DNA from: Nemertoderma westbladi
Lineage: Eukaryota > Animalia > Xenacoelomorpha
Assembly (NCBI GenBank): GCA_032718475.1
Contig: JAUCBJ010006632.1
Location: 1-64,000, forward strand
Direction of reading: 5' to 3'
DNA length: 64,000 bases
Of the stretch, positions 3,162 to 52,271 are shown one piece after another. Every line of letters starts with the position of its first letter. The stretch's first letter is position 1. Made by a program: the position numbers and the translations under genes. The notes beneath the pieces were generated by a model, which was given only the letters and a program-made list of their open reading frames with translations, was not told the DNA's origin and made no database searches.

Positions 3162-3224
3162 TGAATATCTTAATGCAGTTTTATAAGGCTTTATTCCATA
3201 TTCAATTTTAGTTTATTAAATTGA

Positions 3225-4806: not shown

Positions 4807-5907
4807 TGTAAAAGCTTTTGCGGACATAACAAGCCATTTTTCTCCGCAATATACTGTGTAGGTGTTTTAGCGGACATAACAAGCCATTTTTACCCGCTGT
4901 GTCTGCATGTGTGCTTTAGCGGACATAACAAGCCATTTTTACCGCAATGCGCTTAATACTCTAAGACTGGAACTCAGATGACGACATCTACCAGCTGATT
5001 TACTGTACACGTGGAACCTGTCTTTGTTTTGCTTCAGCCAATCAGAGCGATTTTCACTTTGCGTTGAAAGGGGCCTACAGAAACCCACGCAATTCAGTGT
5101 TGGTTGTTGTTATATTTTTTCTAAGCCCAGAACACCGGCTTAGGATTCTTCTGTGCTTCTGTAGAAGTTTCAGACTTTGGCCAGAACATTAGATGGCTTG
5201 GATTATCGAAACGTAAAACTATTACCCCACCTACCTAACTGCACTACTGCATTCACCGCATTATTTTACTTTCTGTTATTAATTGTTATATATGTTGATG
5301 GATATATTGTTATATTTGGAGAATACCGATAAAGAATCCTAAAACCCCAATCTTCTTGATTACTGAAGGTGAGAGGACAGGTTACCGGTAGTAATTGCGA
5401 CTTACATTATAGTGGTTTTTGTGTGAATTAAATGCTATTTCATAATCCCTACATGTGTCAGTTGCTATCCTCCTTATATATGATCAAATTCAGTGACGGT
5501 CGGCAGATCAGTGTGAAGTTGTATGAGGTAGAGTGATTGGTAATAAAGCATCTCCTAAAGAATGTGCCTTTTACGAAACTCAGTAGCTATCTAGTTGTGA
5601 TTAGTATAAGTCATAACTCTGTTTTTATACTTAAAGCGCCACGTCCAAAAGGAACTGTTAATATTTCCCCGAAAGTAAATATATTGTTAGAGATTATATA
5701 GTAACGATCAATCGAATAATACAGTAGGTCTACAACGCAATAATAAGTCCAAGCTCCCGAATCCAGTCTCCCTTAACAGTGGGTGAATGGTCGCGCATAG
5801 ACTGGCTTCGGCTAATGTTATTTCAGTGTAATAAATAATTGTTATCGGCTAAAGTCGATTTATTAAATTAGTTTGGTTAATCTGCTAAAGGTCTAAAAGC
5901 GCAAACA
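4807..5907 (+). mobile_element. 5' LTR of element A (1101 bp)
   Basis: Starts TGTAAAAGCTTTTG like LTR B and ends GGTCTAAAAGCGCAAACA (B: GGTCTGAAAGCGCGAACA). Contains three ~50-bp repeats with GCGGACATAACAAGCCATTTT (4820-4945). Confidence 0.85.
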
Positions 5908-7583
5908 GTAATAGTTTTTTAGTTTCTTTATTGCACAGTAGGCAATAAAGTCGAAGGTACCGGTCGAACGGTAAGCTGTAGGCCTAACTGCCCAACTGCC
6001 CAAACCGGTACTTACAAGTACAACAGTATTATTCGATTTTTGATAATTATATACCGGTAGGTCTTGATATTTAATCAGGGAACTGCCGCCCTGGTTTTTA
6101 TTGGGATTTTACTTATTTCTGTCAGTTTTATTTATCTGTAAGTGAGATATTGAGCAGAAGGCGTGTATGCCCGCTCAGATTGTATAGAGAATTTGTAGGC
6201 TGGATTGTTGTCTGGCTGTTGTTAGGTCTGAAGAGATTGCAGTGTGTGTAGAGTGTATGTCCGATAAAGTACTAGTTAGGAAAGCGGGGGCATCCAGTGC
6301 TATAAGGTAAATCCCCCCGAAAGAATAAGTTGTACTACTCGGTTAGAACGCATACTAACTAACCATTTCGGAGTCTGCATATACTGTAGTTTATTTAGGC
6401 TTGACGGTAGTCTGCCAGCATTAAGTCTGTATTTTGTCTGTATAGTCTGCACGGGTAGCGTAATATTTATTATTCAGAGTTTATGCAAGTATTCGCAACC
6501 TACATAACTCCCCAAGTTCATTCCTACAGTAATTGTGCTTGTTATACATACTGTTATAGTTAAATTAACCCCGGTACTACATCAGGGCTGCTTGGCGTAG
6601 GTAAAGACTGGTGATTTTATGCTCAAGTCACTCCAGCAGATGCCGTGGTTCTTTTAGCTGTTCAAGTATATTTAACTGCTGGTTATTTGTTATATAAGTA
6701 TTTGTACATAATCTAGGGTTTAGAGTACAGTACTTTCCGAAGGTAATTGGTGTGTAGACAGTATATTGGTGTTGTAAAGTGGTTAATTAGGCAAGTTAGC
6801 TCTGGTTGGCTGCGGTAATTAACTTCTAGGTAAGGACACTCCGGGTACATAACGTAGTACTTATAGAGCTGTAGAGCAAAAGACTATAAGTCATCAGACG
6901 GTGGTATTTTCTTATCTGGACAACGCAATTTATTTACTACTGCTTAATTATTTTCAAATACCGTAGTATCCTGTCCGTTTGTAATAACCAGAAATTCTAA
7001 CTCCTTGTAAGACTGGTTTGTATATTCCCTGTAAAATTACCCTAAAATTTGTATGTGTAATTTGTTATTGTTTATTTAGAGATTGTAATCTCACATTGTA
7101 TGTAAGTAATTAGTAGTAATAAGTAACTTAGTAAAGTATAATTATTTGTTTTAGTGTCCAACAGGTAGCACTCCACTGAGAGCGTTCAGCTTCTGTGTAG
7201 TGACTACTCACCAGAAATAATAATATTTATTTCAAATATTGACAAAAACCCTTGTACGGGTACAAATATATTATAAATCAACTCGAACCGATTTATAACA
7301 TAGTAGGCCTGTTATACATCAATTAGGTCTTAATAACAGTTGGGCTACTGCTTAATAACAGTAATAAAGTAAAGTAAGGTAACCTTTAAATTCAGAAATG
7401 CAGTTATTATAAAATAATTGACATTACCGGTATTTAAGGTAGGCTTATTATATATATTTATATAAATTTATGGTGAAATTATATACCGGTATTCTATGAC
7501 TAAACCTAGTTTGTCACAATACTTATATATATGCTATAAGTGTATAAGTATATAAGGTTACTGCTCATCCACTATACAGTTGC

Positions 7584-7883: not shown

Positions 7884-8163
7884 ATTAATCTAGTGCTAAT
7901 TACTCTAGTTATTGATATTATTTCACGTATTAATTATTGTGCTATATATATATATTATTCAGAAATTGATTTGGAATTGTGCGCCATTATTATGATATTA
8001 TAGGCCGGACGGGCCGCATACCGTCTACTACTACTACTACTATACCGGTATTCTAATATTATATATATATATCGCGTTACATTGAGTAACGGTATCGGTA
8101 ATTGATCACTAGGCTTGCAGTTGATACTGAATTACTAGTAGGCATTCAACTGTACAATCAAAT

Positions 8164-11100
8164 ATGGCTGACACAAAGCAAACTCTGTCAGATAGTCTCC
8201 TAGAAAGAACAGTCTGCGGCTCAGACAGGAGTGCAGAAAATCCGAGACCGAAGTCCAAGTCCACTCCTACTATAAGAAAGGTCATCCCTTCAGTAGTAGT
8301 ATCAGACCCTAGGCTAGTCAAGCACCGTTGGTCTATTATAGGCACTTGGGCTCAAGTCAAGCGGGACCAAGAGGCAGCTGTTAAACAGCAGTACCAGCAG
8401 CGCACGAACCGGAAACTTATTTCTCAGCGGTCCAATAGCTCCAGTAGTTCAGATACTGTAGAGTTGATGCCCGAGATCACAGCGGGATGGCAGAGGCGGT
8501 TAATCCGGATCCACTTCTAATTCTTCCTGGAGCTGTACTTGCTGGAGTGTTGATAGCGGTGGAAGAACATGAAATCGATTGGGCGAGAAGTAAGCGATCG
8601 ACCAAGGACAGTTATGCGGGATACGCAAAGGAGGAACTGAAGTCTATCGTCGAGACGCAATGGAATTTCCCCGGACCCGGACTCCCGTTTAACTTATCTG
8701 AAGCTGCCTGGGAAGACTTATACAGAATGGGAGTAGTGAAGGACACTCGAGATCCAGCTGTGTGGAAGAGGTCGGCAGCAGGATATGTACAGGGATTCTT
8801 CAGCTCTTTGAAGCAATTAGAGGAATACCTGTTTCAACAACCTCACGGACCTCAAGAGCAGGGAGAGCTGCTATATCAAGTTCGAGAACGAATTCTACGG
8901 ATCAGACTAATCCTTTCAGCCTTTGAGAAAGCCTCGAAGAGAAGCCAAGACACGTCGTTGCAAGTCGCCGTAAAGACTCGGTTCCAACGAGTGAGTCTTA
9001 AAGTCCAAGGAACGACACAATGGAAAATTCAGCTAACCGAGCACTCGACCCAAGGAGAATCAACAGACGCTGTCTTTTCTCAAGTGGAAAGCGAAGCTAC
9101 GTCAGAAAGACCTCAGAAGAAGGACGCTATTGACATCTATCTGTCGGACTATCAACGATTCATAGGTGACAAAGAGTTAAGGAGACGGCTAGCTGGACTT
9201 CACCCTAAAAGTGAAGGGGCCAAATTTGTGTTAGACTCATTAGATGCGGAAATGTATGCTGCGGATTGAGCAAAATTTGATGAAAGAATCCGCATTGTTA
9301 AGGTCCAAGAAGAACAGCTAAAGAAAAGGCAGATAGAAGACAGAAAGGCAGCTGCATCGGCAGCGGCAGAAGCTGAAAGAAAAGCATCAGCGGCGGCGGT
9401 AGAAGCAGAAAGAAAAGCTGCAGAAGCTGAAAGAAAAGCGGCAGCGACGGCGGTAGAAGCGGAAAGAAAAGCTGCAGAAATTGAAAGAAAGGCGGCAGAG
9501 GCAGTGGCAGAAGCGGAACGGAGGGCATCTGAAGAGACAGCCCAACTAGAGTTGGAAAATCTTCAAGAGAAGCAAGACTATTTAAATAAACAGATAACAG
9601 CTAGTCATATGCAGATGATAAGTCAATCTACTCCCAAGAGACAGGGATTTACATCTTCAGATGAAGGCGATACAACCGATCCGGAAGGCGTAGGAAATGG
9701 ATCTCGTTCCAGCGGACGTAGAAGAGTGCCACACCGTCAGAAATTGCCTAATTTGCCTCCAGCAGTGAGAAGGCAACTAGCTAGTGTAGATTTAAGTAAT
9801 CCTGCGCCTACAGACCAAATTATTAGGGTAGAAAGATGAGCCTGAAATAATTAGGCCTGTTCTCGAAGCCACCCCCTCTGTGATAGAGACCCCTGTACTT
9901 CCAGAACCTAACTCTAAATTCCCTTTGCACAGTACTAAACTACCTGTGCCCAGTAGAACAGCCCCTGAATTGATCCCGGTCCTGGACGCCGAGCAAGACA
10001 TCAACGATTTGTCGCCCGTCGGCCCTCGTCTACCCGCTACTATGTTGGCGGCTCCCGCTTCGGCGGTAGAGTGGGTGGATGAGCGACGGCGGGGGATGGA
10101 TCTCCTGCTCGGGCAGATGGAGGAAAACCATGCGCGTTCCTCCCAACAGGTCCGAGAGTTGGAAGGGACTGTTCAGAAGTTAAAGGGAACAGGATGAGAG
10201 GGTAGGTTAGAATTGCAAGAAGTGCAGCAGAGTATTGCGTTAGAACGCGATAAGTTAGTAAATATACAAAAGGGTATACTACCATCCCCTGTAACAATGT
10301 GTCAACCTGTTAGGTCTGAAGTATTTCATGCACAAGGTGTGGAGCCTACACGCATCTCTACTGCTAGTGAAGTAGAAACTCCTATAGCAAACCCTATTAA
10401 GGGTAATTATAAACCTGTTGATAATAATATTCCATATAGACCTGATCATAATCCAAGAAATTTATACACCGATAACTCGATATTAAATAATACGATGGCC
10501 CAAGAAAGTTTTATGCGTCAAATGGCTAGAACCGAAGCCCGCCAAGCGGTAAAGGTGGGAGAGATCGTCAAGTTCAATGGAGATGAGATGAAATGGTTAC
10601 CTTTTAATGAATATTACAAAGATAACATACATAACTCTGTACTATCCAACAGAGAGAAACTTAGATTCCTCATCGAGTGCTTGGAAGGACCTCCCAAGTT
10701 AATGGCGTTAAAGTTTATTGGACATCCAGAAGGATTAAGACAAGTTTGGGATACACTAAACATCAGGTATGGTAATAGGACTAAAATAGCTAGGTATTTG
10801 TATGCGAAATTAGTAGCTCCCCGAAAGTTTCTTAGCAGCGGGAATATAGAATGTTCCGATGAGATCCTTCAGATCTGTAGACAGCTAGATTGGCTAGGTA
10901 AGTCCCATGAATATGAGAGTTCCATGGTTGTTGGAGCCGTAGCATCTACTTTGCCGAAGGGTGGAGTAGGCACGCGTTGGGACAAAAAAGTGCTCTATAT
11001 GATGGACCAGCAACAAAGAGACTCTACCATGGCTGATCTCATGTCATTCTTAAATGGAGAGGTAAGATTACAGCTCCTAAAGCAGTCCCGAGAGAAAATA

Positions 11101-13401
11101 CCGGAAAATAAGGTAAGTGAAAAACCCGTTTCTAGGAGAAAGGTAACACCAGTGTGTTATACAGACAACGGCAAAAGCCAAGCCTCCCAAGAGGAGAACA
11201 GCGGGAAAGACACCGAAAGATCTTACTATGTCAACAAAGCACCTAAAGACGTAAGTAAATTTAAGTCTCGAACCAGTGACAGGAGAGAACAGGTAATAAA
11301 AACTCCTCCTACGTCTCCTAAGAATTCATGGAAGAAAGCCCGAGGAAAGAACAAGTGTGCACAACACTACCCAAGTTAAAGTAAGTAACATCAAACCCAA
11401 ATGTGCATTGTGCGACAGGCCCCATCGTCTACGTGTATGTGATGAATTCTTAAAGAAATCCCTAAAGGATAGACGTGATGTCATGTGGGATAAGCGGTTA
11501 TGTTATAATTGTCTTAGACAAAGACACCAACGGCGGACCTGTGACTTAGACACGAGGTGCGCTAAGTGCGGCGCGAAACATCATATCTTGCTGCACACCG
11601 AATTTGAAAGAACCAGCCCGAGTCAGGTAAGTGAGTCCGAACTACATGTCCAATTCAGTGATGTGAATGACACTGACCACAGCTCTGAGATGGAAGGATT
11701 TTACACGGACAAATTCTCTGATGAAAATGAATCCTGTTATATGATAAACACCGCGGTGTATCAAGCGCTTACGTACGAGCCTGAAACCGATAACGAAGTG
11801 AAACCTACTATTCCTGACAGACAACCATCTTGGAAAGCACCAACTTCCAATGTCGGAATTCGGGAATTCCCGGTAGTTCAGCTGAGAGTCCACGGGCCCA
11901 TTAAGAGTTTTATAGTCAATGCTCTCCTGGACTCCAGCAGCACAGGAACATTCATCGACAAGGAACTAGCCGAAGACATCTTTGCTGGACAACCCAAGTT
12001 CCGAACTAAGTTGAACCTTTCAGGAATTATGCAGGTTTGGAAATCTACAGTAGCTACGGACTACTATGTAGGAGCGTTGTCCACTCCCCAGGACGAACTA
12101 GGAGAACACAGCATAAGGTCAGTAAAAATGGTGGCAATAAAGAACTTTGCTACCAGCCAAGTAGAACCTTACAACTGGGATGAAGACGATTTTACCCAGC
12201 AGCATGATATCCCTAGATTCAACACCGACTACCCAGGGGTGCAAATATTGATCGGTCAAAATGCGCATGAGGCGCTTGAGACATTAGAAAAACGGCCTGC
12301 TCGACCGCAACCATTGCAAACATATGCGGGAAGAACAAGAGTAGGTTGGTACTTCACTGGACCTTCCCGGAGAACCCTCATGGGACGAGTACCCACTGAC
12401 CATATACATCAGGTGAGTGATTGGGAAGAAGAATTCAGTGAGGGAGAGACCATACCTGAGGGAACACCATACTCCTCAGATAACGACGACATGACCCAAT
12501 TATTTGACGAGGAAAATACAATCGACCTCCTAACAGAGAGTGAAGTTTGGAGAAACCAAACGCAACTGTGCCATCTTGTCAATCATGGCGGACAATTCGA
12601 CTACAATGACGAGCTGAATGAGGTGATAGATCGATACAACGATAAGATTCGCAATGAACACGCCGTACGATTCTTTACTCAAGAAGTTGTAGAGCCTAAT
12701 TCCTACGACAAGGCTCTATCTGTCAAGGAGGAAAGAGCCAAGCAGATACAGGAAACGACCACCCGTTTTCTCAAAGATCAAGGTAGATATGAAATTGGTC
12801 TTCCATTCTGACGGCGAGAACCAAACTTTATCAATAACAGACCTTTAGTGGAGAAGAGAATCGCGCAACTACATCGGCATCTTACGGCCAATGCTTCCGC
12901 TAAGGAGATGTATAAGACACAGCTAAAGAAATTCATCGATAAGGGATACGCGGAGCGAGTACCAGAAGAAACACCCGTAACTGAGAGAACGTATTATCTA
13001 ACACATCATTACGTTCCCAAACCCAGTAAACCCAACGAAGTCCGGGTAGTATTCTACGGCTCCGCCCTTTACATGGGCCAATCACTTAATTCTGAGTTGT
13101 TGCCGGGACCCAACTTACTCCAATCCTTGTTGGGAATACTCTTAAGATTGCGGCAATATTCTATCGCTTTCGCCTCAGATATAGAAGGCATGTTCTTACA
13201 AGTTAAGGCGCTGGATAGGGATCGAGACAGCCTATGATTTCTGTGGTGGCCTGAAGGAGATCTCAACCTAAAACCGGTGGAGTACTGGATGACCATCCAG
13301 GCATTCGGGTTCATCTCAAGCCCCTCGAACGCTTGCTCAGTAGTGTGTACCACTGCTGATGACAACCGAGACGCCTTCTCTAAAGCGGTTATCGACAACA
13401 T
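8164..13401 (+). pseudogene. Element A gag-protease-RT (5' part), many frameshifts and stops
   Basis: Colinear with B's polyprotein. Bel/Pao triple knuckle (CALC..H..C, CYNC..H..C, CAKC..HH), protease LLDSSS, RT N-terminus YYLTHH..LNSELLPGP..DIEGMFLQV. Confidence 0.9.
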
Positions 13402-14595
13402 TGTTCGCGCTTTCAGACCTTTGGCAGTTTAACCCGCCAAATTAGGATGTCTTCTAGATATTAAATCGCCTTTTAGCCTATGACAAGTATTTGATTCACT
13501 ACACTAGTCGAAACCAATCTGTGCGCGATCATTCACCCGCTGGTTATACCCGGGAGATTGGGTTCGACGGCTTAATCTTATTGCTATGTAAGCCTAATGT
13601 ATTATTCGACTGACAGTATTATATAATCTCTGACAATATTATTCACCTTCGGGGAATATTAACAGTTCCTTTAGGACGTGGCGCTCTATCTATATAAACA
13701 GAGTTATGACTTAAACTACTCACAACGATATGGTTTAGTTATAATTCACATATATGGCGCATTCTTTAGGAAATGCTTCTTTAACAGACTCACTCATATA
13801 CAATGCTGCACAATACTGCACACTAATCTGCCGATCTTCACTGATTTTAGTCACATATAAAAGGAACACAGACTGACTCATGTAGGGTCTATCAAATAAC
13901 ATTCGATTCACTTCAAACCACTTTAACATAAGTCACAATCGTTTATCTGTAACCCTTCTCTCTTACCTTCGGTATATCAAGAATATTGGGTTTCGGGGTT
14001 ATTTATCGTTATTCCAAATATAATAATTCATCAACCATATTATGAATAACTGACAGTAAATAGCAGTATAAAACAACAACTGAACACTGATTGTTATGAG
14101 TTTGCAATGTTTCAGCAGTTTGTATGGTCAGATCAGGTCAGCAGTTAAAGGATATATGTCCTTATAATTAAACCTACTAGTGTTGGGCTAAAAAGCAGAA
14201 AAGCACAAAACACTACAAAGCCGTTCTTTCGTGGCTTTGAAACTCGTGACTACTGCTCTATACGAGGATACCAACTACACTTATTCCACGAAGCTCCCGT
14301 TCAACACAGAGAAAGAGCAGTGAGATAGGAAAAATTCAGTTCAGTAGCTCTGTGATAGGTCAAAATCAAGGCTAACTCAAATTCTATTGGGAGATACAAA
14401 AACAGGGCTATGACGCAACCTTCCTAGGCTGGTTGGCCGATTAAACAGAGCCCAGATACCTGCGTACAGCAAATCAGCCAATAAGCTGGTAGCTTGCACT
14501 ATTTTAACTATAGATCCCTTTTTGAGTATTCTAGCGACCGGGGGGGAACTGGCCAGCAAAGCAAACGAACCAGTTATCCCACAAAAGCTTTTACA
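13402..14595 (-). mobile_element. 3' LTR of element B
   Basis: Direct repeat of 28818..30011 with TG..CA ends. I noticed only two substitutions. Confidence 0.97.
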
Positions 14596-14603
14596 CCGCT
14601 CCC
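14596..14603 (-). promoter_or_regulatory. Polypurine tract of element B
   Basis: GGGAGCGG on the minus strand, immediately before the 3' LTR. Confidence 0.85.
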
Positions 14604-14689
14604 AGAAAATGGGATTTAAGTCTATAAAATATACAAAATCACAGTTTCTAAAATATTAAAATACTCTAAACAGTTAGTCTTTCTTGCGT

Positions 14690-16005
14690 GGACGGCGTTT
14701 ACGCAGTTTCTTGAGGCTAGCGAGAGTCCTTTTCTCTTTGGGGCGAGCCACTTTATGAGGAGGGCTGTAGCTCCTAGGCGAAGGGTGCAATATGATTGCA
14801 TTAGAAGGTTTGGGTTTACGGTCGGTGTCTCGTCCATTTCGATATGCTTCTCCTCGAGCTGATTTTCCTCCGCTTGTCATGGGATACGTTCGTCCAAAAC
14901 TCTCGCAAAGAATAGGGTTTTCTAAGCTTGATATCTTCTTTGAGATTCGAGATTTCCCAATCGAACTGAGATAAGGCCAATTCGTTTATCGATTGGACTT
15001 ACTGTTATAACTTACGTTTATCTGAACAAACGCAGATTTCTTTTTTGATCTTTATAGAATAGCGTTTAACTCGTTTTGTACAACGCTCTCCTTCACCTTG
15101 ATGAAGGGTTGTATCGCGTTAAACGGGACGACCATACGGTTGGATAGTGATATTAGGTGTCCGCGTCATAATCCGGCTAGGTAAGATGGGCGGCTAGGTA
15201 GAAATCACTGTCGGAGTGTTACCGATTAATTGTTAGGGTAGCACTAGATCTTTGAACAGTGAATACAGTCCGCGAGGATCCGCGACACCACCAGGATCGC
15301 AGGTCTGAGGTCCAACTAAGGAATGAGGAGGTTTGACCGAGTATTCCGGGACTTTGATCGTAGGTTTACTCCAGGATCGTTCGAGCCGAGTGAGCATAGG
15401 TGATACGTCAAACAAGTTTCGCTCGAAACTCCAGTAAATATAACGAGCACAACTGTGTTTAACACAACGTTTCCGTGGATGTTTATGTCTTTCCGTTTAT
15501 TAGTTGGGTCTAGGGCATTTATCGTAATAATACCAAAGACGCACGTCTGGTAGGGGAAACGCGGGTGATATTTATTTGTTGTTACAATGCTTCTGTCAAG
15601 AATTCCAAATATACGTTGGAGTTACCGCGTTTATTTGTTTCTTTAGTGTCTTTTCTTTCGAGTCTATTTCGAATAGAAATTTCGCATTCGAATTTCAGTT
15701 TATGGTTCTGACTCCGCTGGGCAGGATATATAGTCGACATAGTCCGTATTATGTAAATCGATAGGATGACCAGTAGTTAAGAAGACCATATACGTACCAT
15801 TACGCTGCATATATCGAGCGGCGAATTTTCTATAGTCCAACTCGCGCGCGAGCTGCTCTTGGGACATTGGCGGTTCGATATAACGACCATCGTCCTCCGC
15901 AGCAGTTGGACTAACGTCGCCGCGTATTAAGCTATCAACAAACGCTTGTAAAAGTAGAGTATATCGCTCCCCGATACCAAGACCATCTTCTATCAACTCC
16001 GTCAT
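14690..16005 (-). pseudogene. Deleted remnant of element B's extra 3' ORF (N-terminal part only)
   Basis: MTELIEDGLGIGERY.., FDVSPMLTRLERS.. and ..EMDE.. match A's 34614..36050. The exonuclease and knuckle region is missing before the PPT. Confidence 0.85.
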
Positions 16006-17632
16006 ATCTGCTATATATGAGTTTATCCATATTATAATGAGTTTATATTTAGGCGAGCGGGCGTCGCTGCCTACCCCAATCAACCCCCGGACAGTACGAG
16101 ATCCTCAGCGCCGATGTGTCGTCGCCGCTGTACTTTCGCCAACGACGTAGCCGCACAACGACAACGACAACCGGCACAAGTCACTCGACTGTCCGTCCCA
16201 AAGGCTTAGATATACCTCAGGTTCTTACTGGAGAGTTAGGGTTACTTTCACAATTGCGACTCGCTACTGTAAACACACCTTAGTAGTAACATTCGCCTAT
16301 AAACTCACAAATACCACACACACAACTTGTCACAAATTACACACACTCGGGTCACTTGTCCGTTAGTCAATGCCTTCCAGAATGTCACTGTATTATTATG
16401 TATCCTTGGATACTAGCAGTGCGCTATTTATTCCCTATGCTATTCAATGGGACAAGCTTTCTATTGTTCCTTTAACTCAATTCTAATTCTAGCGTGGTTG
16501 TTGCTATGGTGACATTATGTAAAGCTAGCGGTAGAATTAGGGTAATTCCAATGCATACAGATCTGGGATGTTATTTAATAGTAATTCTTTAATAGTCAAT
16601 GTCCTGTTTTATACATGACTTTATGAATTTTATCGGCTATTGACTATGTTTGGGAGACTTTCGTACACGCATACGCATAATAATATAAATCTCCGCTCCC
16701 CTGATCTATTAATTAATGGAATTTTGGGAATGTTATAAATTGCGTAAAATGGCAATTTATTAAATTCATTAAAAGACATGAATTTAAATTTATTCCCTGA
16801 AATTTTATTATTTGACACTTAAATAGACATATTTTGATTCTAAAACATGTCTGGGGACACAAGATCCTTAATTCTACGAAAATTGTCCTTTTAAGAATAT
16901 CGGTAAATGCTACGATATCTTAATCGACTAGAATTGTTAAAGGATCTGAATTTTGCAGATTTTGACATATTAGATTTGCAAATATTAAATAATTAATATT
17001 TGAGATGGGCACCGATTTATTCCAGAACTTGTCTGGGGACGTTAACCACTGATTCTATAATTTGTCTTTCAAGTATATCGGTGGGTGCCACGATATCTTA
17101 ATCGACTAGAATTACAGATGGTCAAAGGGTTTAACAGATTTATTTTGCGTTATACGCTACTGTTAAAGGGACATCACGCTACTATATGTATTATTTAATA
17201 TACGGTATGAGAGCAATATCGCACGAAGCAATGTCAGTGTGAAGAGGCAAGTCGTTTCCAAGGTCTACCAAGAGCTTGGTTTAGCCGAGACACGAGGATC
17301 TGAACTTTGCATTCCTAATACTCTGCCTACCAATAATACTTTAATATAGTAGTGGCTTTATTGTACTTTAATAAGTACGGACATTTCATCTTACTGTAGT
17401 TACGTATTTATAATATAATACGGACAGTAAGGAAAGAGAAAAATAATTATTTCTTCGCCGTCGCACTAAATATAATATAAGTAATTACGTACGTAATAAA
17501 CACGAATATATTGCACTATTCTACTAAATTAAATAAAACGATTATAATAAAATTACATAGTAATACATACATAAATATAAAAATAATAAAATAATATAAA
17601 ATAATAGAGTCACACGCCCACTCCGAACGATA

Positions 17633-20600
17633 TTAAGTTGGGGAGTCCCTAGATGTCGGTTGGATTAGGGAAGTGGTCGTGGGAAGAGTTTCTTGCCTTC
17701 CATAGTTTCCGGAGAGCTCTCTGTCTCTTTCCAGTAAACATAAACGACCCACTGGGCGATTGAGCTGTTGAGTCTCAAAGACTATCCCTGGTTTCTTAAA
17801 GTTCCGCCGCATGACGACGAGCTCTACTGATCTCACCAAACCATCGCTCGAGATATAAGTCTCGATGATACGTCCTGTTTGCCATCGCTTACGTGGGAGA
17901 TCGGGGTCCACAATAAGCACCATGTCTCCAGCGCTGACGTTTTCTTGCTGCGCAAACCACTTAGTTCGAAGTTGTAGAGTGGGCAGGTAATGTTTCTCGA
18001 AATGGTCAGCGAAACGACGGGATAGCAACTGCATAAGTTGCCAGGTTCGACGACAGTACTCGTCTCCGTCTGTGATCTCCGATCGTGGGAGCATGGCTAC
18101 GGGCTTCTTCAGTAGAAAGTGCGCGGGTGTTAGCGCTTCCAGGGAATCAGGATTTGAAGAGACTGGCATAAGCGGTCTTTCGTTGAGATAGGCGGCGATT
18201 TCCTCCATTAACGTCCGCAATAATTCGTCGGTGAGATAAGCGCGACAAGGCACAATAAAGTGGAACGCAGTCTTCACGCTCCTAATCAATCTCTCCCAAC
18301 TTCCTCCCCACCAAGGGGCGTCGGCGGCGTTGAAGGTCCAGCTAGACGCTGTTATCCTTAGCTGATCGTCCACCTGTCTTATGTTCCAGTCCTTTACGTA
18401 AGCTTGAATTTCGTTATTGGCGCCAATGAAGTTCGTTCCCTTATCCGATCTCATCGTGTTACTGGTTCCGAAGCGAGCGATCTGTCGTCGTAAACTCAAC
18501 ACGAAGCTGTTGGTGGATAGATCGTTTACCATATCGAGATGGATAGCTCTACAAGTCATACAAACGAAGATGACACACCATCTCTTGACTATAGTTCGGG
18601 CACGATATACTTCAATAGGGCCAAATAAATCCACACCGGTATTAGTAAAGGGTGGTTCATAGAAGCTTACTCTTTCCCTAGGTAATTCTGCCTCTCGCTG
18701 TGTTAAAGGCCTACTGAATGCTTTCTTACAGGGTATGCAGTTCCTAAGAACTTGGTTCAGAGCCCTACGGGGTTTATAAAAATAGTAGCGAGTTCGAATT
18801 TCACTCAGAACTCGTTCTCTACCAGCATGGTACAGTTTGCTATGAACATCTACAATTATCTTGATTTGTATGTCAAGATTTCTAATAAGTATGGGAAACT
18901 TAGTGTCAAAGGATAATGGGGCGTTTGTTAGCCGACCCCCAACACGTATTAACCCATCTATCATGGTACTAGAGAAGCGATCCCTTAAGCGCATCTGCGG
19001 ATTTCTTAACAACAGGAAATACTTATCGGAATCCTCATAGCATTGTAGGAGTCTCAGCATCTGTTTGTTGGTTTCATCATGCTCCTGGTAACTGATCTTC
19101 TCCTTTAGAAACCTGTCGGATATCTTGTACTTTGGAAGATCTTTAACAGCATGGACTCGTGCAGATGTTGATGGAGCATCATCACTATTCATCATTCATC
19201 ATCATCACTTTGTCCCGGAGTAACGATGATGAAAACATCGTTTCAAATAAGTAACAGCTTTACAAAGCCGATTCCAGGAACTGTAGTGACGTATCGCTCT
19301 CTGCAAGAGAGGTGAGAGTCCTTGCGAGATATCTGGTATTCCAGATTTCCAATCCTTGTCACGGATTTCCAAGATTTCTTTAGTCGTGGCAGTGGGTTTC
19401 TGATCCAAAGCATCCTCTCCGGAAGTAAATAATACAGATAGATCAACCGCAGGTTTAAACAACTTCGATTTACTCGCTCGAGTTTTGGGTTTAACTTTCT
19501 CCGCTCCCTTGGCCTGTCTGATCTCTGCGGTTGTGAGATGGGGAGGCCATTCTTCTTCTTCTCGGTAGAGAAAGCTGGGTCCACCTAACCATTCAGGAGT
19601 ATTTACCAATTCCTTTGGAGTCGCTCCTCGGGAAGCGATGTCTGCTGGATTAATCGTTCCGGGGCAATGTCTCCATTGGTCCATCGTCGTGCGACTAAGT
19701 ATGATGGATACTCTGTTGGTAACAAAGACGCTGAACTGACAGACTTCATTGGTTATATACTCTAACACGAGTAAAGCGTCGGTCCAATAGACAGTTTTCT
19801 CTAATGGATAGTCAATCTGTTCTGTTACATTCCGGCCGATGGCTGTAGCGTATAGAGCCGCTTTTAACTCCGCTCGAGGAACTTTCAACTTGTTGTTGAT
19901 TAATGCCTTAGAAGTAACCAAGGCGACTTTGATTCCATCCGGAGTTTCCACCCTTAGATAGGCTACTATACCTATTCCCATATTGCTGGCGTCTCCAAAC
20001 ACATGGAGTTGATAGGAATACGTAGGGAGAACATGACCAAAATATGAACGGGATATTATAAAATCCTCAATAGCTGGCAGAGAATCTTCCCATTTCATCC
20101 ACTTCTTTAATAATTCTCCCTTAAGTGGATCGTCCCATGAGTGGTTTTCAAGCCACATTTGTTGTACCAAACTCCGAGCAATCAATATAACTGAGCTAAT
20201 AAATCCCAATGGATCGAAATAAGTGCTCAGTATACTTAAGCAAATCCGTTTGGTTCGAACTGGATTATCTCGCTGTTTTAGTTGGAAAAACAGGATATCT
20301 CGCTCTGTGTCCCATTTCAAGCCGAGTGTCTTGTTTCTGGCAGATCATCTTTGATCAAATCGAGATCTTTCGCTCCTCGATCCTCCGCAGGGATCGACTC
20401 CAGAAACTCACGGGAGTTGCTGGTGAATTTCGTTAATCGAAACCCACCTCTTTTTAAGCACTCTACCGTTCCTTTAGCGACCTCAATGGCTTCCTCAACT
20501 GATGGAAGGGACTTCAGATTGTCGTCCATGTATATGTCCCTCTTAATGTTGTCGATCACTTCCTTAGAGAAGGCCTCTCGGTTGTCCTCTGCAGTGGTAC

Positions 20601-23600
20601 GCACTACTGAACAGGCGTTGGAAGGGCTTGAGATTATTCCAAAGGCCTGGATGGTCATCCAGTACTCCACCGGTTTCTGGTTGAGGTCTCCTTCGGGCCA
20701 CCATAGAAATCGTAGGCTATCTCGATCCCTATCCAACACTTTGACTTGCAAGAACATGCCTTCTATATCGGAGGCGAAAGCAATCGAATATTGTCTCAAT
20801 CTTAAAAGAATTCCCAACAAAGATTGAAGTAAGTTGGGTCCGGGTAACAATTCAGAGTTAAGGGATTGACCCATGTAAAGAGCGGAGCCATCAAACACTA
20901 CTCTCACTTCATGTGGCTTACCGGGTTTAGGAACGTAATGGTGAGTTAAGTAATACGTTCTTTCGGTCACAGGTGTTTCTTCCGGTACTCTCTCCGCGTA
21001 TCCCTTATTAATAAATTTTTCCAGCTGTGTTTGATACATTGCTTTAGCTGAAGAATTGGCCGTAAGGCGTCGATGGAGTTGCGCGATTCTTTTTTCCGCC
21101 AAAGGTCTGTTATTGATGAACTTCGGTTCTCTCTTGCGAAAAGGTAAACCGACTTCATACCTACCTTGATCTTTGATGAAACGTGTAGTCGTCTCTTGGA
21201 TCTGCTTGGCCCTTTCCTCTTCCACCGATAAGGCTTTATCGTAGGAATTGGGCTCTACCGCCTCTTGCGTAAAGAATCGTACAGCATGTTCATCTCGAGT
21301 CTTGGCATTACAACGCTCAATGACGTCATTTAACTCGTCGTTATAAGTTTCTCGTTCAGATGGATAGAGAAGTTGACATAAGTTCACTTGATTTTGCCAA
21401 GCCTCGTTTTCCTTAAGGAGATCAATGGTATTCTCCTCATCAAAAAGCTGGTGAATGTCGTCGTTGTCTGAGGAGTATGGAGTTCCCTCAGTTAAATCGT
21501 CTCCCTCACTAGTATCATCTTCCCATTCACTCACCTGGCAGACGCGCTCTTGCGGTAGTCTTTCTCTGAGTGTTCTACGGGAAGGTCCAGTAAAGTACCA
21601 ACCTACTCTAGTTCTTACCGCATAGGTCTGCAGTGGCTGCGGTTGAGCAGGCCGTTTCTCTAATGTCTCCAGCGCCTCATGCGCGTTTTGGCCGATGAGT
21701 ATTTGCCCTCCAGGATAATCAGTCTGGAATCGAGGTATGTTAAGATGTTGGATGCTCTCATCCTCGTCCCAATTATAAAGGTCTGCTTGGGTAGTAGCGA
21801 AGTTCTTTATAGCTACCATTTTCACTGACCTGATGCTATGTTCTCCTAGTTCGTCCTGGGGGGTGGACAACGCTCCTACATAATAATCCGCTGTTATTGT
21901 AGATTTCCAAACTTGCATAATTCCAGACATGTTTAGCGTAGTTCGGAACTTGGGTTGTCCAGCAAATATGTCTTCGGCTAGCTCTTGGTCGATGAATGTT
22001 CCTGTACTACCGGAGTCAAGGAGGGCGTTCACTACATAACTCCGTTTAGGTCCGTGAACCCTTACCTGTACCACAGGAAATTCTCTAATCCCTACATTGG
22101 AAGATGGCTCTTTCCAAGATGGTTGCCGTTCAGAAGTAGTTAGAGTGAGGTCGCTGTCTGTATCTTTTTCATATGTGAGTGCTCGATACACTGCGGTATT
22201 TATCAGGTAACAGGATTCGTTTTCGTCGGAGAACTCATCCGTATAGAATCCTTCCATCTCAGATTGATCAGTGTCGTTCACATCACTGAATTGGACATGT
22301 AGTTCGGAATCACTTACCTGATTCGGACTATTTCGCTCGAATTCAGCGTGCAACAAGATATGATGTTTCGCACCACACTTTGCACACCTTATGTCAGAGA
22401 AACAGGTACGCCGTTGGTGTCCTTGTCTGAGGCAATTATAACATAACCGCTTATCCCACATGACTTCGCGTCTCTCAGTTAATGATTTCTTTAGAAATTC
22501 ATCACACATATTTAAGCGATGGGTCCCGTCGCATAGCGCACATTTCGGTTTGATGTTACTTACCTTATTCTGAGTCACATTGTGTACACTTGCTTTTTCT
22601 TCGGGCTTTCTCACCTGAATTCTCTTGGGAGACGTAGGAGGAGTTTTTCTTACCTGTTCTCTCCTGTCATTTGTTCGAGACTTGAATTTACTTACCTGAT
22701 CTTTAGGCATTTTATTCACGTAATAAGATCTATCAGTGTCCTTCCCGCTATCTTCTCCTTGAGAAGTCTGGCTTTCGCCATCGTCTGTATAACACACTGG
22801 TGTTACCTTTCTCCTAGAGACGGGTTTTTCACTTACCTTGTTTTCCGGTGTCTTCTCTCTGGACAGTTTCAGGAGCTGTAATTTCACTTCTCCATCTAGG
22901 AATGACATGAGATCAGACATGGTAGGGTCTCTTCGTTGTTGTTCCATCATATATAACACTTTCTTATCCCAGCGTGTGCCTACCCCACCTTTCGGTAAAG
23001 TAGAAGCCACAGCTCCAATGACCATAGAACTTTGGTATTCATGAGACTTACCTAACCAATCTAATTGTCTACAGATCTCTTGAATCTCATCGGAAAACTC
23101 TATTATCCCACTGCTGATGAACTTTCTGGGCGCTACTAATTTCGCATATAAATACTTAGCGATATTATTCCTATTACCATACCTGATGTTTAGTGTATCC
23201 CAAACTTGTCTTAATCCGTCTGGATGTCCAATAAACTTTAACGCCATTAACTTGGGAGATCCTTCCAAGCACTCGATGAGGAATCTAAGTTTCTCTCCAT
23301 TAGACAATACAGAGTTCTGTATGTTATCTTTGTAATATTCATTAAAAGGTAACCATTTCATCTCATCTCCATTGAATTTGACTATCTCTCCCACCTTCAC
23401 CGCTTGCCGGGCTTCGGTTCTAGCCATTTGACGCGTAAAACTTTCTTGGGCCATCGTGTTATTTAATATCGAGTTATCGGTATATAAATTTCTCGGATTA
23501 TGATCCGGTCTATAGGGAATATCATTATCAACAGGTCTATAATTACCCTTAATAGGGTTCACTATAGGAGTTTCTACTTCGCTAGCAGTATAGATGCGTG

Positions 23601-26560
23601 TAGGCTCCACACCTTGCGCATGAGATACTTCAGACCTAACGGGTTGACACATTGTTACAAGGGGTGGTGGTATACCCTTTTGTAAATTTACTAATTTATC
23701 GCGTTCTAACGCGATATTTTGCTGCACTTCCTGCAATTCTAACCTACTTTCCTTTACTGTTCCCTTTAACTGTTGAACAGTCTCTTCTAACTCTCGGACC
23801 TGTTGGGAGGAGCGAATGTGATTCTCCTCCATCTTTCCGAGGAGAACGTCCATCCCCCGCCGTCTCTCGTCTACCCAATCAACCGCCGAAACGGGATCCG
23901 CCAACGTTGTAGCGGGCGGACGAGGGACAACGGGCGACAAACCATGAATATTTCGCTCGGAGTCCAGAGTATGAACTATCTCATGGGCTGTTCTGCTGGG
24001 CACAGGTAACTTAGTGCTGTGCAACGGGAATTGAGAGGTAGGTTCAGGGAGTACAGGTGTCTCTACGACCGAAAGTGTGACTTCGGGAACAGGCCTAACT
24101 ATTTCAGGCTCATCTACTATAGTAGGGAGTCTCTCTATTGTAATTATTTGTTCTGTGGGTTCTGTACTCGCTAAGTTGGTGTTATTTAGTTGCCTTCTAA
24201 CAGCTGGAGGCAAATCAGGCAATTTTTGACGGTGGAACGTTCTTTTACGTCTGCTTAGGCGAGATCGATTTCCTCCGCCTTCAGTGTCGGTGGTATCGCC
24301 TTCCTCAGATGATGTATAACCCTGTCTTTTGGGAGTCGATCGACTCATCATCTGCATATGTGGCTGGCCACGAGAAAAGGGACCTTATGTCGCAAAACCT
24401 GATTCTGAGATAATCGCGTTTAAAGTTTCCCTCTATTTTTGAACAAATTTAATTGGATTATCAATTTAGAAATGTATAAAACGATGAGGGAAATTCAAAT
24501 TGGTTCTGATATTCAATATACCTAGGAAATAACTAATTACAGGAAGCAATATAAGATGTTGCAGTATATAACACTGTCTTAGGGTTTTCATGTCTGAATT
24601 TAGGACTGTAATAAAATTGTAATTGCACTACTGTAATACAGTATGTAGGTACTGTAGGCCTACAGTTATTTTTTAAATGCAATATGGCTGTCATTTTCTT
24701 AATTTATCTTCGTTAGTTCTTAAATTTTGTAATCCCAATAAAGAATTCAAAATACAAATAATTTTAAATTTTGTTAAAAATATTTATCTTTTTGGAAAAA
24801 TTTTAAATTAAAAAAAAAAATTTTTTGGTTACATGTTTTTTTGAAAATTTTGCAAAAATTTTTTTAAAATAGTTCATGAACAATATTAATAGTTTCAAAG
24901 TGTTAAAAGTTGTATAAAAAGCCGAATAACATTGAGCTGCCTAACTATATAGTTAGAATGCTATGATATTATTAATCTTTTCCATTTTTTTAAATAATCG
25001 CTTATTATAACCGCTATTAATAAAATTAAAACTACCCGATTCACCTTCACATAAATCGCTATAACTTTTTTTTGGAAATAGATATTGAGACACCGTTTTT
25101 TTTGTTAGAATCTCTGGAAAATTCTGCATCTCATAGGCCTAATAACTCAAAATCGACCTCCGGTGACATAAGGTCCCTTTTCTCGTGGCCAGCCACATAT
25201 TACTAGCTACTAACTGTTTACTGAAGTCGTCTTGCTTCTCTTGAAGATTTTCCAACTCCAGTTGGATGATCTCTTCAGCCGCTCTCCGTTCTGCTTCCGC
25301 CACTGCTGCCGCTTTTGCCTCTGCCGCTGCCGCTTTTGCCTCTGCCGCTGCCGCTTTTCTTTCTGCCTCTGCCACTGCTGCTATCTTTCTGTCTTCTATA
25401 CGTTTTTTCCTTACTTGTTCTTCCTTTTCTCTAGCGATGCGGAGTTGTTCATCGAATTTAGCTTGGTTCGCCGCTAACCTATCCACATCAATTGCATCTA
25501 ACACAAGTTTGGCTCCTTCGCTATTAGGGCTAAGTCCCTCTAGCCTTCTCCTCAACTCTTCATCTCCCAAAGAACGCTGATAGTCTGACAGATAGATGTC
25601 AATGGCATCCTTCTTATGCGGTTTCTCTGCCGTCGCTTCACTTTCCACTTGGGAAAAAGTAGCGTCCGTCGATTCTCCATGGGTTGAGCGCTCCTCCAAC
25701 TGAGCTTTCCACTGAGCTGCTCCTTGAACCTGGCGTCTCACCCTTTGAAACCAAGTCTTTACGGCAACTTGCAACGACGTGTCTTGTCTTCTTTTAGAAG
25801 CCTCCTCAAAGGCTGATAAGATTAGCCTAATTCGCAGAATTCTTTCTCTAACTTGATAAAGCAGTTGTCCCTGCTCTTGAGGTCCTTGAGGTTGTTTAAA
25901 CAGTTGTTTTTCTACTCGCTCCATAGAGCTGAAGAATCCTTGTGCGTATCCGGCTGCGGACCTCTTCCATACAGCTGGATCGATGGTTTCCTTGGCTACT
26001 CCCATCCGGTGTATGTCTTCCCAGGCAGCTTCTGATAAATCAAACGGGAGTCCGGGTCCGGGGAAGTTCCATTGCGACTCGACAATAGACGTCAGTTCTT
26101 CCCTCGTGTATCCCGCATAACTATCTCTAGTTGATCGTTGACTTCTCGCCCAATCGATCTGGTGTTCTTCCACCGCGATCAATAACCTAGTGAGTACGGC
26201 TGCAGGAAGGATGAGAAGGGGATCCGTATAAACCGCATCCGTCATCTCTGCTCCGCGCTCGGGTGTCAGCTCTACAGTATCCTCACTACTGGAGCTGTTG
26301 GGCCGCTGAGGAATAAGTTCTTGACTCGCGGGTTGTTGCTGTTCCGCTGCTTCTTGGTCCCGCTTGACCTGAGCTCGGGTGCCTATGATAGACCTACGAT
26401 GTTGGACTAGCCTAGGTTCTGTTATTACTACTGGAGGGATGACCTTTCTCACAGTGGGAGGTGAACTGAACTTACGACTCGACGGTTCTATATCTCTATC
26501 TGAGTCGCAGATAGTTACATCTAATAAACTGTCTGACAGGTTCTGCTTAGTATCAGACAT
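17633..26560 (-). pseudogene. Element B gag-pol polyprotein (Gag, PR, RT, RNase H, IN)
   Basis: Triple knuckle, LLDSGS, YMDD, HVFGDAS, HAG..CIPC, GVDLFGP, SDKGTNF, WWGGSWER. Broken by a MITE (24360-25196), a frameshift near 20320 and four in-frame TGA at 19196-19207. Confidence 0.95.
24360..25196. mobile_element. Non-autonomous TIR DNA transposon (MITE), 837 bp
   Basis: Perfect 32-bp TIRs GTGGCTGGCCACGAGAAAAGGGACCTTATGTC, ATAT on both flanks, AT-rich non-coding interior. Removal restores B's gag frame (..LVASN-MQMMS..). Confidence 0.93.
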
Positions 26561-27889
26561 GTTTGTATGTACAGTTGAATGCCTACTGCTATATTACAGT
26601 CTAAGCAAGTCTAGTAATTCAGTATTAACTGCTAGCCTAGTAATTAACTACCGATACTGCTACTCAGTGCAGCGTGATATATATAATATATTAGAATACC
26701 GGTATGCTTATAGTATATATAAGTATTATTACAGACTATGTTTATCACAGAATACCGGTATAATTTTAGCACAAATATATATAAATATATAATAGGCCTA
26801 TCGGGAATACCGGTATACAGCTTACAGTTTGTAGTATATATAATTCTGGACTAGAATTAATTACAAGTACCGGTATAATTTCAGCCTAAATTTATAGAAA
26901 TAAAGATAATAGGCCTATCGTAAATACCGGTATATCAATTATTTTAAATAATTGAATTTCTGAACTTTAAGGGTTACTTGGTTACTCTACTTACTTTATT
27001 ACCGTTATTTGAGCAGTAGTCCAACTGATATTGAGACCTAATGGTTATATGGTAGGCCTACTATTTATAAATCGTTAGATTTGATTTATAATATATATAT
27101 ACCCGTTTTAATGGGTTTTGTCAATGTTTGAAATAAATGTTATTATTTCTGGGGAGTAATCACTACACAAAGCGGTGCGCTTTCAGTGAAGTGTTACTTA
27201 TAGGACACTAAAACAAATAATGCTAATTTACCTAAGTTACTTAATACTACAAATTACGTACAATTCGGGTGAGATTACAATCTCTAAATAAACACAAAAA
27301 TTTACAAAAAACACAAAATACGAATTTTTAGGGTAATTTTACAAGAAGTCTACAAACCAGCCTAACAAAGGGTTAGAAATCTGGTTATTACAACGGACAG
27401 GGTACTACGGTATTTGAAAATAATAAGTAGTAGTGAATACACTGCGCTGTCCAGATAGGAAAATACCACCGCCTGACGACCTATAGCCGTATCGCTATAG
27501 GTTCTACGTTATGTATCACGGAGTGTTCCTACCTAGAAGTTAATAGAGCTAATCGAACATGCCTATCAACCACTTTACAACACAAATATAATGCCTACAC
27601 TAATTACTTTCGGAAAGCACTGTACACTAAACCCTAAATTAGGTACGAGTACTTGTACAACAGATAATCAGTAGTTAAATATACTTGAACAGTTAAAAGA
27701 ACCACGGCATCTGCTGGAGTAACCGGTGCACAAAATCACCAGTCTTTACCTACGCCTAGCAGCCCGTGTAGTACCGGGGTTAGTTTAACTATAACGGTAT
27801 GTACAACAAACACAATTACTGTAGGAACAAACTTGGGGAATGAATGTTGTGAATAATCGCATAAACTCTGAATAATAAATATTACGCAA

Positions 27890-28450
27890 CGCGTACAAAC
27901 TACTCAAACAAAATGCAGACCAAATACCGACAGACTACCATCAAGCCTAAACAAACTACGGTATATGCAGACTCCGAAATGATTAGGTAGTATGCGTTCT
28001 AACCCAGTAGTACGACTTATTCTTTAGCTGGGGGTTTACCTTATAGCATTTGGCTGCCCCTACTTCCTAACCGTACTTAATCGGACAGGTGCTCTACACA
28101 CACTACAATCCGTTCAGACCTAATAACAGCCAGACAATTATCCAGCCTACAAATTATCTAAATAAATATTATACGCTACCTGTACAGACTTACACAAACA
28201 AAGTACAGACCAAACGATGGCAGACTACTATCAAGCCTAAATAAACTACAGGACATGCAGACTCCGAAATGATTAGGTAGTATGCGTTCTAACCCAGTAG
28301 TACGACTTATTCTTTAGCTGGGGGTTTACCTTACAGCATTTGGCTGCCCCTACTTCCTAACCGTACTCAATCGGACAGGTGCTCTACACACACTGCAATC
28401 CGATCAGGCCTAACAGCAATCAGACAACAGCTCAGCCTACAAATTGTCTG
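27890..28450. repeat. ~290-bp tandem duplication in element B leader
   Basis: GCAGACTCCGAAATGATTAGG... at 27967 and 28257. Single copy in A (~6180-6470). Confidence 0.9.
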
Positions 28451-28625
28451 TACAATCTGATCAGGCTTACACGCCTTCTGTTCAATACTGGCCTACAAAC
28501 AAATAAAACTTGACAGAAATAAGTAAAAATCTCAATAAAAAACCAGGGCTGCAGTCCCTGATTAATTATTAAGGCCTACCGGTATATAACTATCAAAATC
28601 GAATAATACTGCTGTACTTATACGG

Positions 28626-28747
28626 AAGTACCGGTTAGGACAGTTGGGCCTACGGACCTACAGAAGTACTGGTTCTGGCAGTTGGACCTACGGGCCTATG
28701 GCAGTACCGGTTCTGGCAGTTGGGCCTACTGACCTACAGATGTACCG
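28626..28747. repeat. Three ~37-bp degenerate tandem units in element B leader
   Basis: AGTACCGGTT.TGGCAGTTGGGCCTAC.GACCTAC-like units. Confidence 0.75.
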
Positions 28748-28817
28748 TTCAGGTTTACCGGTTGTCCGGTACTTTCAACTTTATTGCTTACTGCAATAAA
28801 GAAGCAATATCCTTTAA

Positions 28818-30011
28818 TGTTCGCGCTTTCAGACCTTTGGCAGTTTAACCCGCCAAATTAGGATGTCTTCTAGATATTAAATGGCCTTTTAGCCTATGAC
28901 AAGTATTTGATTCACTACACTAGTCGAAACCAATCTGTGCGCGATCATTCACCCGCTGGTTATACCCGGGAGATTGGGTTCGACGGCTTAATCTTATTGC
29001 TATGTAAGCCTAATGTATTATTCGACTGACAGTATTATATAATCTCTGACAATATTATTCACCTTCGGGGAATATTAACAGTTCCTTTAGGACGTGGCGC
29101 TCTATCTATATAAACAGAGTTATGACTTAAACTACTCACAACGATATGGTTTAGTTATAATTCACATATATGGCGCATTCTTTAGGAAATGCTTCTTTAA
29201 CAGACTCACTCATATACAATGCTGCACAATACTGCACACTAATCTGCCGATCTTCACTGATTTTAGTCACATATAAAAGGAACACAGACTGACTCATGTA
29301 GGGTCTATCAAATAACATTCGATTCACTTCAAACCACTTTAACATAAGTCACAATCGTTTATCTGTAACCCTTCTCTCTTACCTTCGGTATATCAAGAAT
29401 ATTGGGTTTCGGGGTTATTTATCGTTATTCCAAATATAATAATTCATCAACCATATTATGAATAACTGACAGTAAATAGCAGTATAAAACAACAACTGAA
29501 CACTGATTGTTATGAGTTTGCAATGTTTCAGCAGTTTGTATGGTCAGATCAGGTCAGCAGTTAAAGGATATATGTCCTTATAATTAAACCTACTAGTGTT
29601 GGGCTAAAAAGCAGAAAAGCACAAAACACTACAAAGCCGTTCTTTCGTGGCTTTGAAACTCGTGACTACTACTCTATACGAGGATACCAACTACACTTAT
29701 TCCACGAAGCTCCCGTTCAACACAGAGAAAGAGCAGTGAGATAGGAAAAATTCAGTTCAGTAGCTCTGTGATAGGTCAAAATCAAGGCTAACTCAAATTC
29801 TATTGGGAGATACAAAAACAGGGCTATGACGCAACCTTCCTAGGCTGGTTGGCCGATTAAACAGAGCCCAGATACCTGCGTACAGCAAATCAGCCAATAA
29901 GCTGGTAGCTTGCACTATTTTAACTATAGATCCCTTTTTGAGTATTCTAGCGACCGGGGGGGAACTGGCCAGCAAAGCAAACGAACCAGTTATCCCACAA
30001 AAGCTTTTACA
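28818..30011 (-). mobile_element. 5' LTR of element B
   Basis: Direct repeat of 13402..14595. Confidence 0.97.
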
Positions 30012-51507: not shown

Positions 51508-52271
51508 TGTTGGACGCAACTCACTTCGTATGCATTCCTCGTATGCAAATACAAGGAAATGCATAGGAGCGGGGTTGTGGTGATTTGCGTTGAGTTTTGT
51601 CTGGTGGGTATCAAAACAAAATTTTATTTCAAAAATTTTGGAAAAAATTAGAAAATTTTAAAAATTAGAAGTGAACCCAAGACAATTCCAGACGCTGTGT
51701 ATAGACGCGTTTTAGAATTCGTCTATAGATAAACAGTAATTTGAAAAGTCGTGAAGCCTGGAAAATAGCATTTAGAAACCATGGTGACGGCTATATTACG
51801 TAGGAGTGTAAATTGAGTTTAGCAACTTCCACAGATTGGTGCCAACAGTGCAACTAAGGTGCTAAAGGTTAGTAGCACCAGAGGGGTGCACGGACCCCAC
51901 TCAGTAGTTTGCAGGATGTGTGATGTTCGATTATCAAACCTGTGGGTTTGGTATAGTCGAGTATTGTGGCTATAGTCCTTTCTAACTACTGTAGTTTAGT
52001 ACGAGTAATGGGAGTAGTTTGGGCATCAAAAAGTGAGTTGGTCACGGCCAGTTTATCTCCAAAGTTTTTGCGCTATGCATGGGAATAGGTTAGAGGATAG
52101 TTAGTTAGGAAGAGACGGGATCTAGAGAGTCGAACCTGAACTGCTGGAAGGCGGGGGGGGGGGGTTCGGGAGGTCTGTCCTTCGGCGACATCTAACTGAT
52201 TTACCCACAGTGTAGTTGGTTACGTAACGGCACTTATTGGGATATATATATATGTATATACGCGTAACATA

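Follow-up and report, generated by a model that had tools for sequence, protein, structure and literature searches.

Introduction

Priming of reverse transcription by an element's own RNA has been described for Tf1/sushi and Tcn1 elements of the Gypsy superfamily (PMC4600332) and predicted for the TAR lineage of the Copia superfamily (PMC6317226), according to the sections of these papers that deal with priming. In the relevant part of PMC7175516, the first 11 bases of Tf1 pair with its primer-binding site (PBS), the RNase H cut falls between bases 11 and 12, and about half of the Tf1 cDNAs keep a copy of the PBS at their 3' end according to a portion of PMC11042837. The TAR lineage consists of plant Ty1/Copia elements (Houba, Osr-1), for which a match of at least 10 bp located 0–5 bp after the LTR serves as the mark of self-priming in the corresponding section of PMC6317226. 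For Bel/Pao elements, the ICTV Belpaoviridae profile gives an 18-nt PBS for tRNA-Arg or tRNA-Gly, genomes of 4.2–10 kb and LTRs of 0.2–1.2 kb, and it describes their replication as tRNA-primed and poorly understood (PMC8742986). The terms 'PBS' and 'tRNA' are absent from the main text of the Sinbad paper (PMC554778) and of a Bel/Pao survey (PMC3118150), and nothing on Bel/Pao priming is added by the relevant sections of PMC13524379, PMC6934838, PMC8220671 and PMC3601003. The listings from full-text literature searches contained no report of self-priming or of a splice-made primer in Bel/Pao elements; a prior mention in subscription journals, Repbase entries or bioRxiv supplements is possible.

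Here, we describe three Bel/Pao elements (A, B and C) in the window, which is the whole 64-kb stretch of Nemertoderma westbladi DNA that was analysed. Like Tf1/Tf2 of Schizosaccharomyces pombe, Tj1, Tf1/sushi and Tcn1, as these are portrayed in the cited sections, they have no tRNA site and carry about 11 post-LTR nucleotides that are complementary to their own LTR. In the Tf1/Tf2, Tj1 and Tcn1 group an RNase H cut makes the primer, and we propose by analogy that the same would apply here. Unlike that group, the elements encode Bel/Pao rather than Gypsy proteins and their primer segment is situated 682–1038 nt from the LTR end. Also unlike Tf1, a primer consisting of the first 11 nt of the RNA is unsupported here, and most relatives have the segment split by a predicted intron. 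The matches have the length and position used for TAR, although superfamily and kingdom are different and a splice-made primer is not mentioned for TAR in the relevant section of PMC6317226.

Results

Complementarity between the PBS and the LTR of element A

The 5' LTR of element A (4807..5907, + strand; TG...CA, 1101 bp) was delimited by alignment to the LTR of element B, with which it has the first 12 and last 4 bases in common and whose own ends are given by the presence of two copies and of a 5-bp target duplication. No second LTR copy, and hence no 3' LTR of A, was found within the 64-kb window. The LTR ends with ...GCAAACA at 5907 and is followed immediately by GTAATAGTTTT (5908..5918, + strand), a PBS at offset 0 that lacks TGG, while AAAACTATTAC at 5215..5225 (+ strand) is its exact reverse complement and represents the predicted self-primer segment. 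This arrangement had been pointed out in a preliminary description of the sequence, and it was confirmed. Each of the two complementary 11-mers is found a single time in the window. Pairing anchored at the first post-LTR base runs for at most 11 bp, a length reached by 2 of 5000 dinucleotide shuffles of the LTR, and scanning offsets from −40 to +60 placed the pairing maximum at offset 0. The complementarity in A is real and far beyond chance. The extra GAAAC/GTTTC pairing mentioned in the same description is likewise present in the predicted duplex (−19.7 kcal/mol), in which 5208..5212 (+ strand) extends the helix upstream by pairing with 5922–5926 across an internal loop. TGG is absent from the ~50 nt following the LTR in A, B and C. 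A tRNA gene search of the window found none, and a self-encoded tRNA was dropped as a primer source in the window.

Anatomy of the window and pairing in elements B and C

The reading frames of all three elements are broken. In element A (+ strand), which contains stops and frameshifts, gag-protease-RT lies in pieces at 8131..13401 (+ strand; Pfam DUF1759), shows 65–91% protein identity to the pieces of B and is interrupted by the insertion of B, and the remaining pol (RT end, RNase H and integrase) follows in pieces at 30012..32907 (+ strand; Pfam Peptidase_A17, Integrase_H2C2 and DUF5641). Element B (13402..30011, − strand; 16,610 bp) is nested in A, has LTRs at 30011–28818 and 14595–13402 and is flanked by an AACAT target duplication. 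Its LTRs show 2 differences in 1194 bases; its pol is frameshifted despite these near-identical LTRs, and the frameshift may be real or an assembly error. Element C (39552..59788, + strand; 20,237 bp) has 2.18-kb LTRs at 39552–41735 and 57608–59788, an ATACG target duplication and a broken pol. The three form a nested cluster at 4807–59788, with B located within the RT gene of A and C just after the 3' ORFs of A.

Several further features were recorded in the window. The gag of B is split by a MITE-like, AT-rich insertion of ~800 bp (~24360–25200) that has 36-bp terminal inverted repeats and is absent from A. Gypsy-type gag-like fragments are situated to the left of A (2025–3212, − strand; a weak Retrotrans_gag match below cut-off) and between the extra ORFs of A and element C (38365–39473, − strand), and tandem repeats occur at 28–509 (21/30-bp units) and 63166–63465 (60-bp units).

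All three window Bel/Pao elements with a 5' LTR junction have an offset-0 match, of 11, 11 and 10 bp. In B, the predicted self-primer segment (29561..29571, − strand) forms 11/11 pairs with the PBS at offset 0 (28807..28817, − strand), a result reached by 3 of 5000 shuffles, and alignment places it at a position homologous to that of A; a second match, of 10 bp, exists at offset 11. In C, the predicted segment (40688..40697, + strand) forms 10/10 pairs with the offset-0 PBS at 41736..41745 (+ strand), which 2 of 200 shuffles equalled. For the 3' LTR copy of C the match is 11 bp including one G.U, with 0 of 200 shuffles. A 6-nt indel immediately upstream of the primer segment distinguishes the two LTRs of C (40682–40687 versus 58738); both keep the 10-bp match, and the 3' LTR version has gained the eleventh, G.U pair.

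The covariation over family members that the preliminary description looked to is present, as B and C pair with letters different from those of A. Between A and B, the PBSs have different letters at 5 of 11 positions, whereas their flanks agree at 26/30 and 34/43 positions, and every difference is compensated in the LTR segment. A swap of partners left only 4 bp between the PBS of A and the LTR of B, and likewise for the PBS of B with the LTR of A. Between A and C, 4 of 10 PBS positions differ, all of them compensated, and the first six PBS bases are common to both.

Bel/Pao ancestry of the elements

The Bel/Pao domains DUF1759, Peptidase_A17, DUF5641 and the integrase zinc domain were found above curated cut-offs in A and B; in C three Bel/Pao domains were above cut-off and the integrase zinc domain just below. 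Pol of the window elements is ordered PR-RT-RH-IN. The 120 RT matches listed are all Bel/Pao-type polyproteins by their Pfam sets, and the named relatives among them come from corals, a sea anemone, sea urchins, bivalves and fish, with 42–49% identity. B and C have TG...CA LTRs, 5-bp duplications and a common GGAGCGG polypurine tract. What the elements have in common with Belpaoviridae are the set and order of their domains, LTRs of the TG...CA type, a target duplication of 5 bp and the best listed RT matches. Unlike the Belpaoviridae profile (PMC8742986), they have no tRNA site, the 18-nt tRNA-Arg/tRNA-Gly PBS being absent from A, B and C, and B at 16.6 kb and C at 20.2 kb with its long LTRs exceed the sizes given there. 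By protein ancestry only, A, B and C are Bel/Pao elements, apparently variant in priming. They may belong to the Sinbad superfamily of Bel/Pao, a lead that comes from the survey, where each of the six published families selected by eye and on the basis of a shared RT motif is Sinbad. No chromodomain match was found, leaving A, B and C without the protein mark of Ty3/Gypsy chromoviruses, while an LTR-adjacent PBS complementary to ~11 nt of the own LTR, the Tf1/sushi trait, is present. By analogy, the three elements likely prime like Tf1 without being members of Tf1/sushi.

RNA folding and transcript signals

The primer segment and the LTR end enclose a long loop (682–1038 nt across A, B and C). 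The helices of B and C appeared in the predicted fold with pair probabilities of 0.89 and 0.94 when the RNA started at or near the primer segment, and vanished from it with 100 nt of upstream RNA added. For A, none of the three start points put the helix into the predicted fold (probability 0.00). That transcription begins near 5215, as raised in the preliminary description, is unsupported and also not required: none of A, B and C has a TATA box ~30 nt upstream of the primer segment, pairing in A continues upstream of 5215, and the split relatives described below need an upstream exon. The sole TATA-like word in C lies 609 nt upstream of its primer segment.

Neither AATAAA nor ATTAAA occurs in the LTRs of B or C. 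In A, a 9-bp hairpin enclosing AATAAA follows the PBS in the local fold (5926..5950, + strand) and by alignment is also found in B. Tf1/sushi elements have a U5 inverted-repeat stem-loop next to the PBS; the local folds beside the PBS differ among A, B and C, and A and B have only this post-PBS hairpin in common. A strong splice-donor-like site, AAG/GTGAG with the cut after AAG, is located 144 nt downstream of the primer site (5369..5374, + strand) and is kept in B (29382); it may serve a subgenomic mRNA that leaves out the PBS, or may keep early polyadenylation in check.

Related families from metagenomes

A scan of metagenome contigs confirmed at least 539 candidates, from which at least 79 loci representing at least 52 families were kept; two scans of viral contigs turned up no relatives. 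Terminal direct repeats defined the LTR end of 12 families and the LTR start of 14; as one family belongs to both sets, 25 families were tested, and 27 of the 52 had no fixed LTR boundary. Contiguous offset-0 pairing was mostly short and failed in most relatives, and a splice test was therefore made. In the relatives, a pyrimidine tract and an AG precede the pairing piece, and a GT donor lies 74–366 nt upstream. The pyrimidine-AG motif had been considered as an initiator, an idea dropped in favour of the upstream GT donor, which extends the pairing and fits better.

In all 25 testable families, Watson-Crick pairing of at least 10 bp connects the post-LTR bases with the family's own LTR. For 21 of them the match extends across a predicted GT-AG splice junction within the LTR, and in 4 it is contiguous, like that of A, B and C. 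The feature first noticed in A is common to a wide lineage, and the contiguous form in which A displays it is a minority there (4/25 families). A spliced primer was also tried for A, B and C and rejected, as the best spliced matches were 0, 6 and 8 bp versus 11, 11 and 10 bp for the contiguous ones.

Joining donor and acceptor exons in the 12 end-fixed families gave 11–15 bp in 8 of them with strict sites, and 10–16 bp across the junction in 10 of them with any GT donor. L037 in this set is contiguous with 10 bp, and L035 is without a match in this set, its LTR end being misplaced. In strict cross-family controls, 12 of 132 pairs reached at least 11 bp, all of them among four families with one common motif. 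None of the 12 post-LTR sequences starts with TGG; L059, whose match depends on a weak donor, has TGG at offset 1.

The 14 start-fixed families were searched without reference to the LTR end. The strict acceptor rule gave split matches in 4 of 14 on the first pass; the rule was relaxed to any AG after the sequences had been inspected, and only then were 11 of 14 reached (10–14 bp). In this relaxed search 33 of 182 cross-family pairs also gave at least 10 bp, and match length alone is therefore weak proof. Split targets fell 0–3 nt after ACA in 10 of 11 own-family cases versus 0 of 33 cross-family ones (Fisher 4e-9). The remaining 3 of the 14 have contiguous matches of 11–12 bp located 4–6 nt after ACA. 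The 27 boundary-less families (29 rows, 6 of which have no upstream DNA) gave at least 10 bp in 12 rows; this ACA-anchored search was uncontrolled and is kept outside the 25-family count. No contig among those 29 rows combined a spliced 5' copy with an unspliced 3' copy. In a separate observation, the L029/L030 family consists of head-to-tail copies with a 6138-bp period.

An RT tree was built from 245 columns and 28 rows (the 25 tested families and A, B and C, with untested families left out) and rooted at the midpoint. In this tree, which has no reference sequences, A, B and C form one long branch of their own (97/97). The contiguous state requires 5 changes, at least 3 of which are forced by well-supported branches, and its clustering is no greater than in shuffles. 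The simplest reading of the tree is repeated intron loss by copying of spliced RNA, with the direction of change resting on the midpoint root. The split/contiguous sister pair L032 and L037 can be aligned only over the first 50 LTR bases.

Extra 3' ORFs of elements A and C

Downstream of pol, A carries pieces of extra ORFs (34820..38335, + strand) that are ~30% identical to the extra ORFs of C. One of those in C lies at 52200–53192. The larger one (53237..55987, + strand) likely represents a captured DEDD-type 3'-5' exonuclease with zinc knuckles, as judged from a profile match, an alignment and an atlas lead (0.85). Only 8 relatives, all distant, were found for it at E≤0.001 among 1.84 billion representatives. 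Their alignment displays exonuclease-like motifs and zinc knuckles, and the profile of the family hits EXD2, an exonuclease (E 9.7e-8), as well as zinc knuckles. Juno and Vesta, bdelloid rotifer LTR retrotransposons with a DEDDy exonuclease ORF3, likewise have a DEDD-type ORF as an extra 3' one (in the relevant part of PMC5408684); unlike theirs, the ORF here is in a Bel/Pao element and comes with zinc knuckles. That this exonuclease might trim the primer is speculation.

Discussion

With the pairing, its start at the LTR end, the compensation of its differences and the lack of a TGG site established, we consider Tf1-like self-priming in cis, with a segment of the element's own LTR RNA and no host tRNA, as the best explanation for A, B and C, at a probability of about 75%. 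Self-priming as such, whether in cis or in trans, we regard as highly probable. The tRNA-independent priming of A proposed in the preliminary description is upheld to this extent, with the pairing in B and C and in the 25 families as its support. By analogy with Tf1, the LTR transcript of A would fold such that 5215–5225 pairs with 5908–5918, looping out 682 nt; the RNase H of the element would cleave just after 5225, and the reverse transcriptase would extend the new 3' end into 5907 and copy back to the cut. B retains a natural RNase H piece in which four acidic motif residues were recognized by inspection, presumably those of the RNase H acidic motif. For 21 of the 25 related families, splicing of a predicted intron within the LTR would put this primer together, whereas it is uninterrupted in A, B and C.

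During plus-strand synthesis, the PBS would be re-copied from the primer. Such re-copying would lead to fast and exact covariation without G.U pairs and to a PBS that changes faster than its flanks, and would also explain why all 25 families have at least 10 pure Watson-Crick pairs. In the split families, it would mean that the spliced RNA really served as the primer. The alternative that survives best, although unlikely, takes the helix for a conserved long-range RNA structure with a role in the control of translation, packaging, splicing or polyadenylation, and has priming occur by another route. The imperfect pairing upstream of the core and the hairpin and splice donor conserved nearby would suit such a structure, and the coupling to splicing in the relatives would suit a switch between mRNA and genome. 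Ordinary RNA helices usually admit G.U pairs, and the pure Watson-Crick matches of the 25 tested families argue against this alternative. It would also leave 28 families or elements without any primer site, and the helix begins 0–6 nt past the LTR end, in the manner of a PBS.

An improbable variant is that the same LTR segment acts in trans, as a primer from a separate short or spliced transcript such as that of a solo LTR or of a second particle RNA. This would explain the 682–1038 nt distance together with the helix missing from the fold of A, and how split relatives could keep the intron while using a spliced primer. The helices of B and C do fold in cis under one start assumption, and a primer in trans is a variant of the self-priming favoured here that brings no return to tRNA priming. 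Much less credible is a primer from the host, either a tRNA fragment or some other small RNA, with the LTR match being secondary. Half-tRNA primers are known in Copia lineages (in the section on primers of PMC6317226), and A and C have their first six PBS bases in common. Against a host primer, A and B are 73–83% identical in DNA, yet their PBSs differ at 5 of 11 positions and each PBS matches its own LTR only, and the relatives have many distinct PBSs, each matched by its own LTR or predicted splice junction. Chance complementarity, which AT-rich sequence and the 10-bp matches occurring off-site could suggest, is refuted by the compensated differences, besides the rare shuffle matches in three elements at offset 0 and the homologous places in A and B.

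Returning to self-priming, we lean, with less assurance, toward a wider scenario in which a broad marine Bel/Pao lineage gave up tRNA priming and splices an LTR intron to build its primer, with intron-less forms of the A/B/C type having arisen repeatedly. If true, this would make Bel/Pao the third independent superfamily with self-priming, and the split form would provide the first spliceosome-made primer of a retroelement. It would account for PBS-finding tools drawing blanks on these elements, and the self-primed branch would likely be beyond the reach of silencing by tRNA fragments. In the split form, reverse transcription would be licensed by host splicing, as only a spliced LTR copy would be usable as primer. 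With a self-primed Bel/Pao branch, each of the three LTR superfamilies would have evolved this escape from dependence on tRNA.
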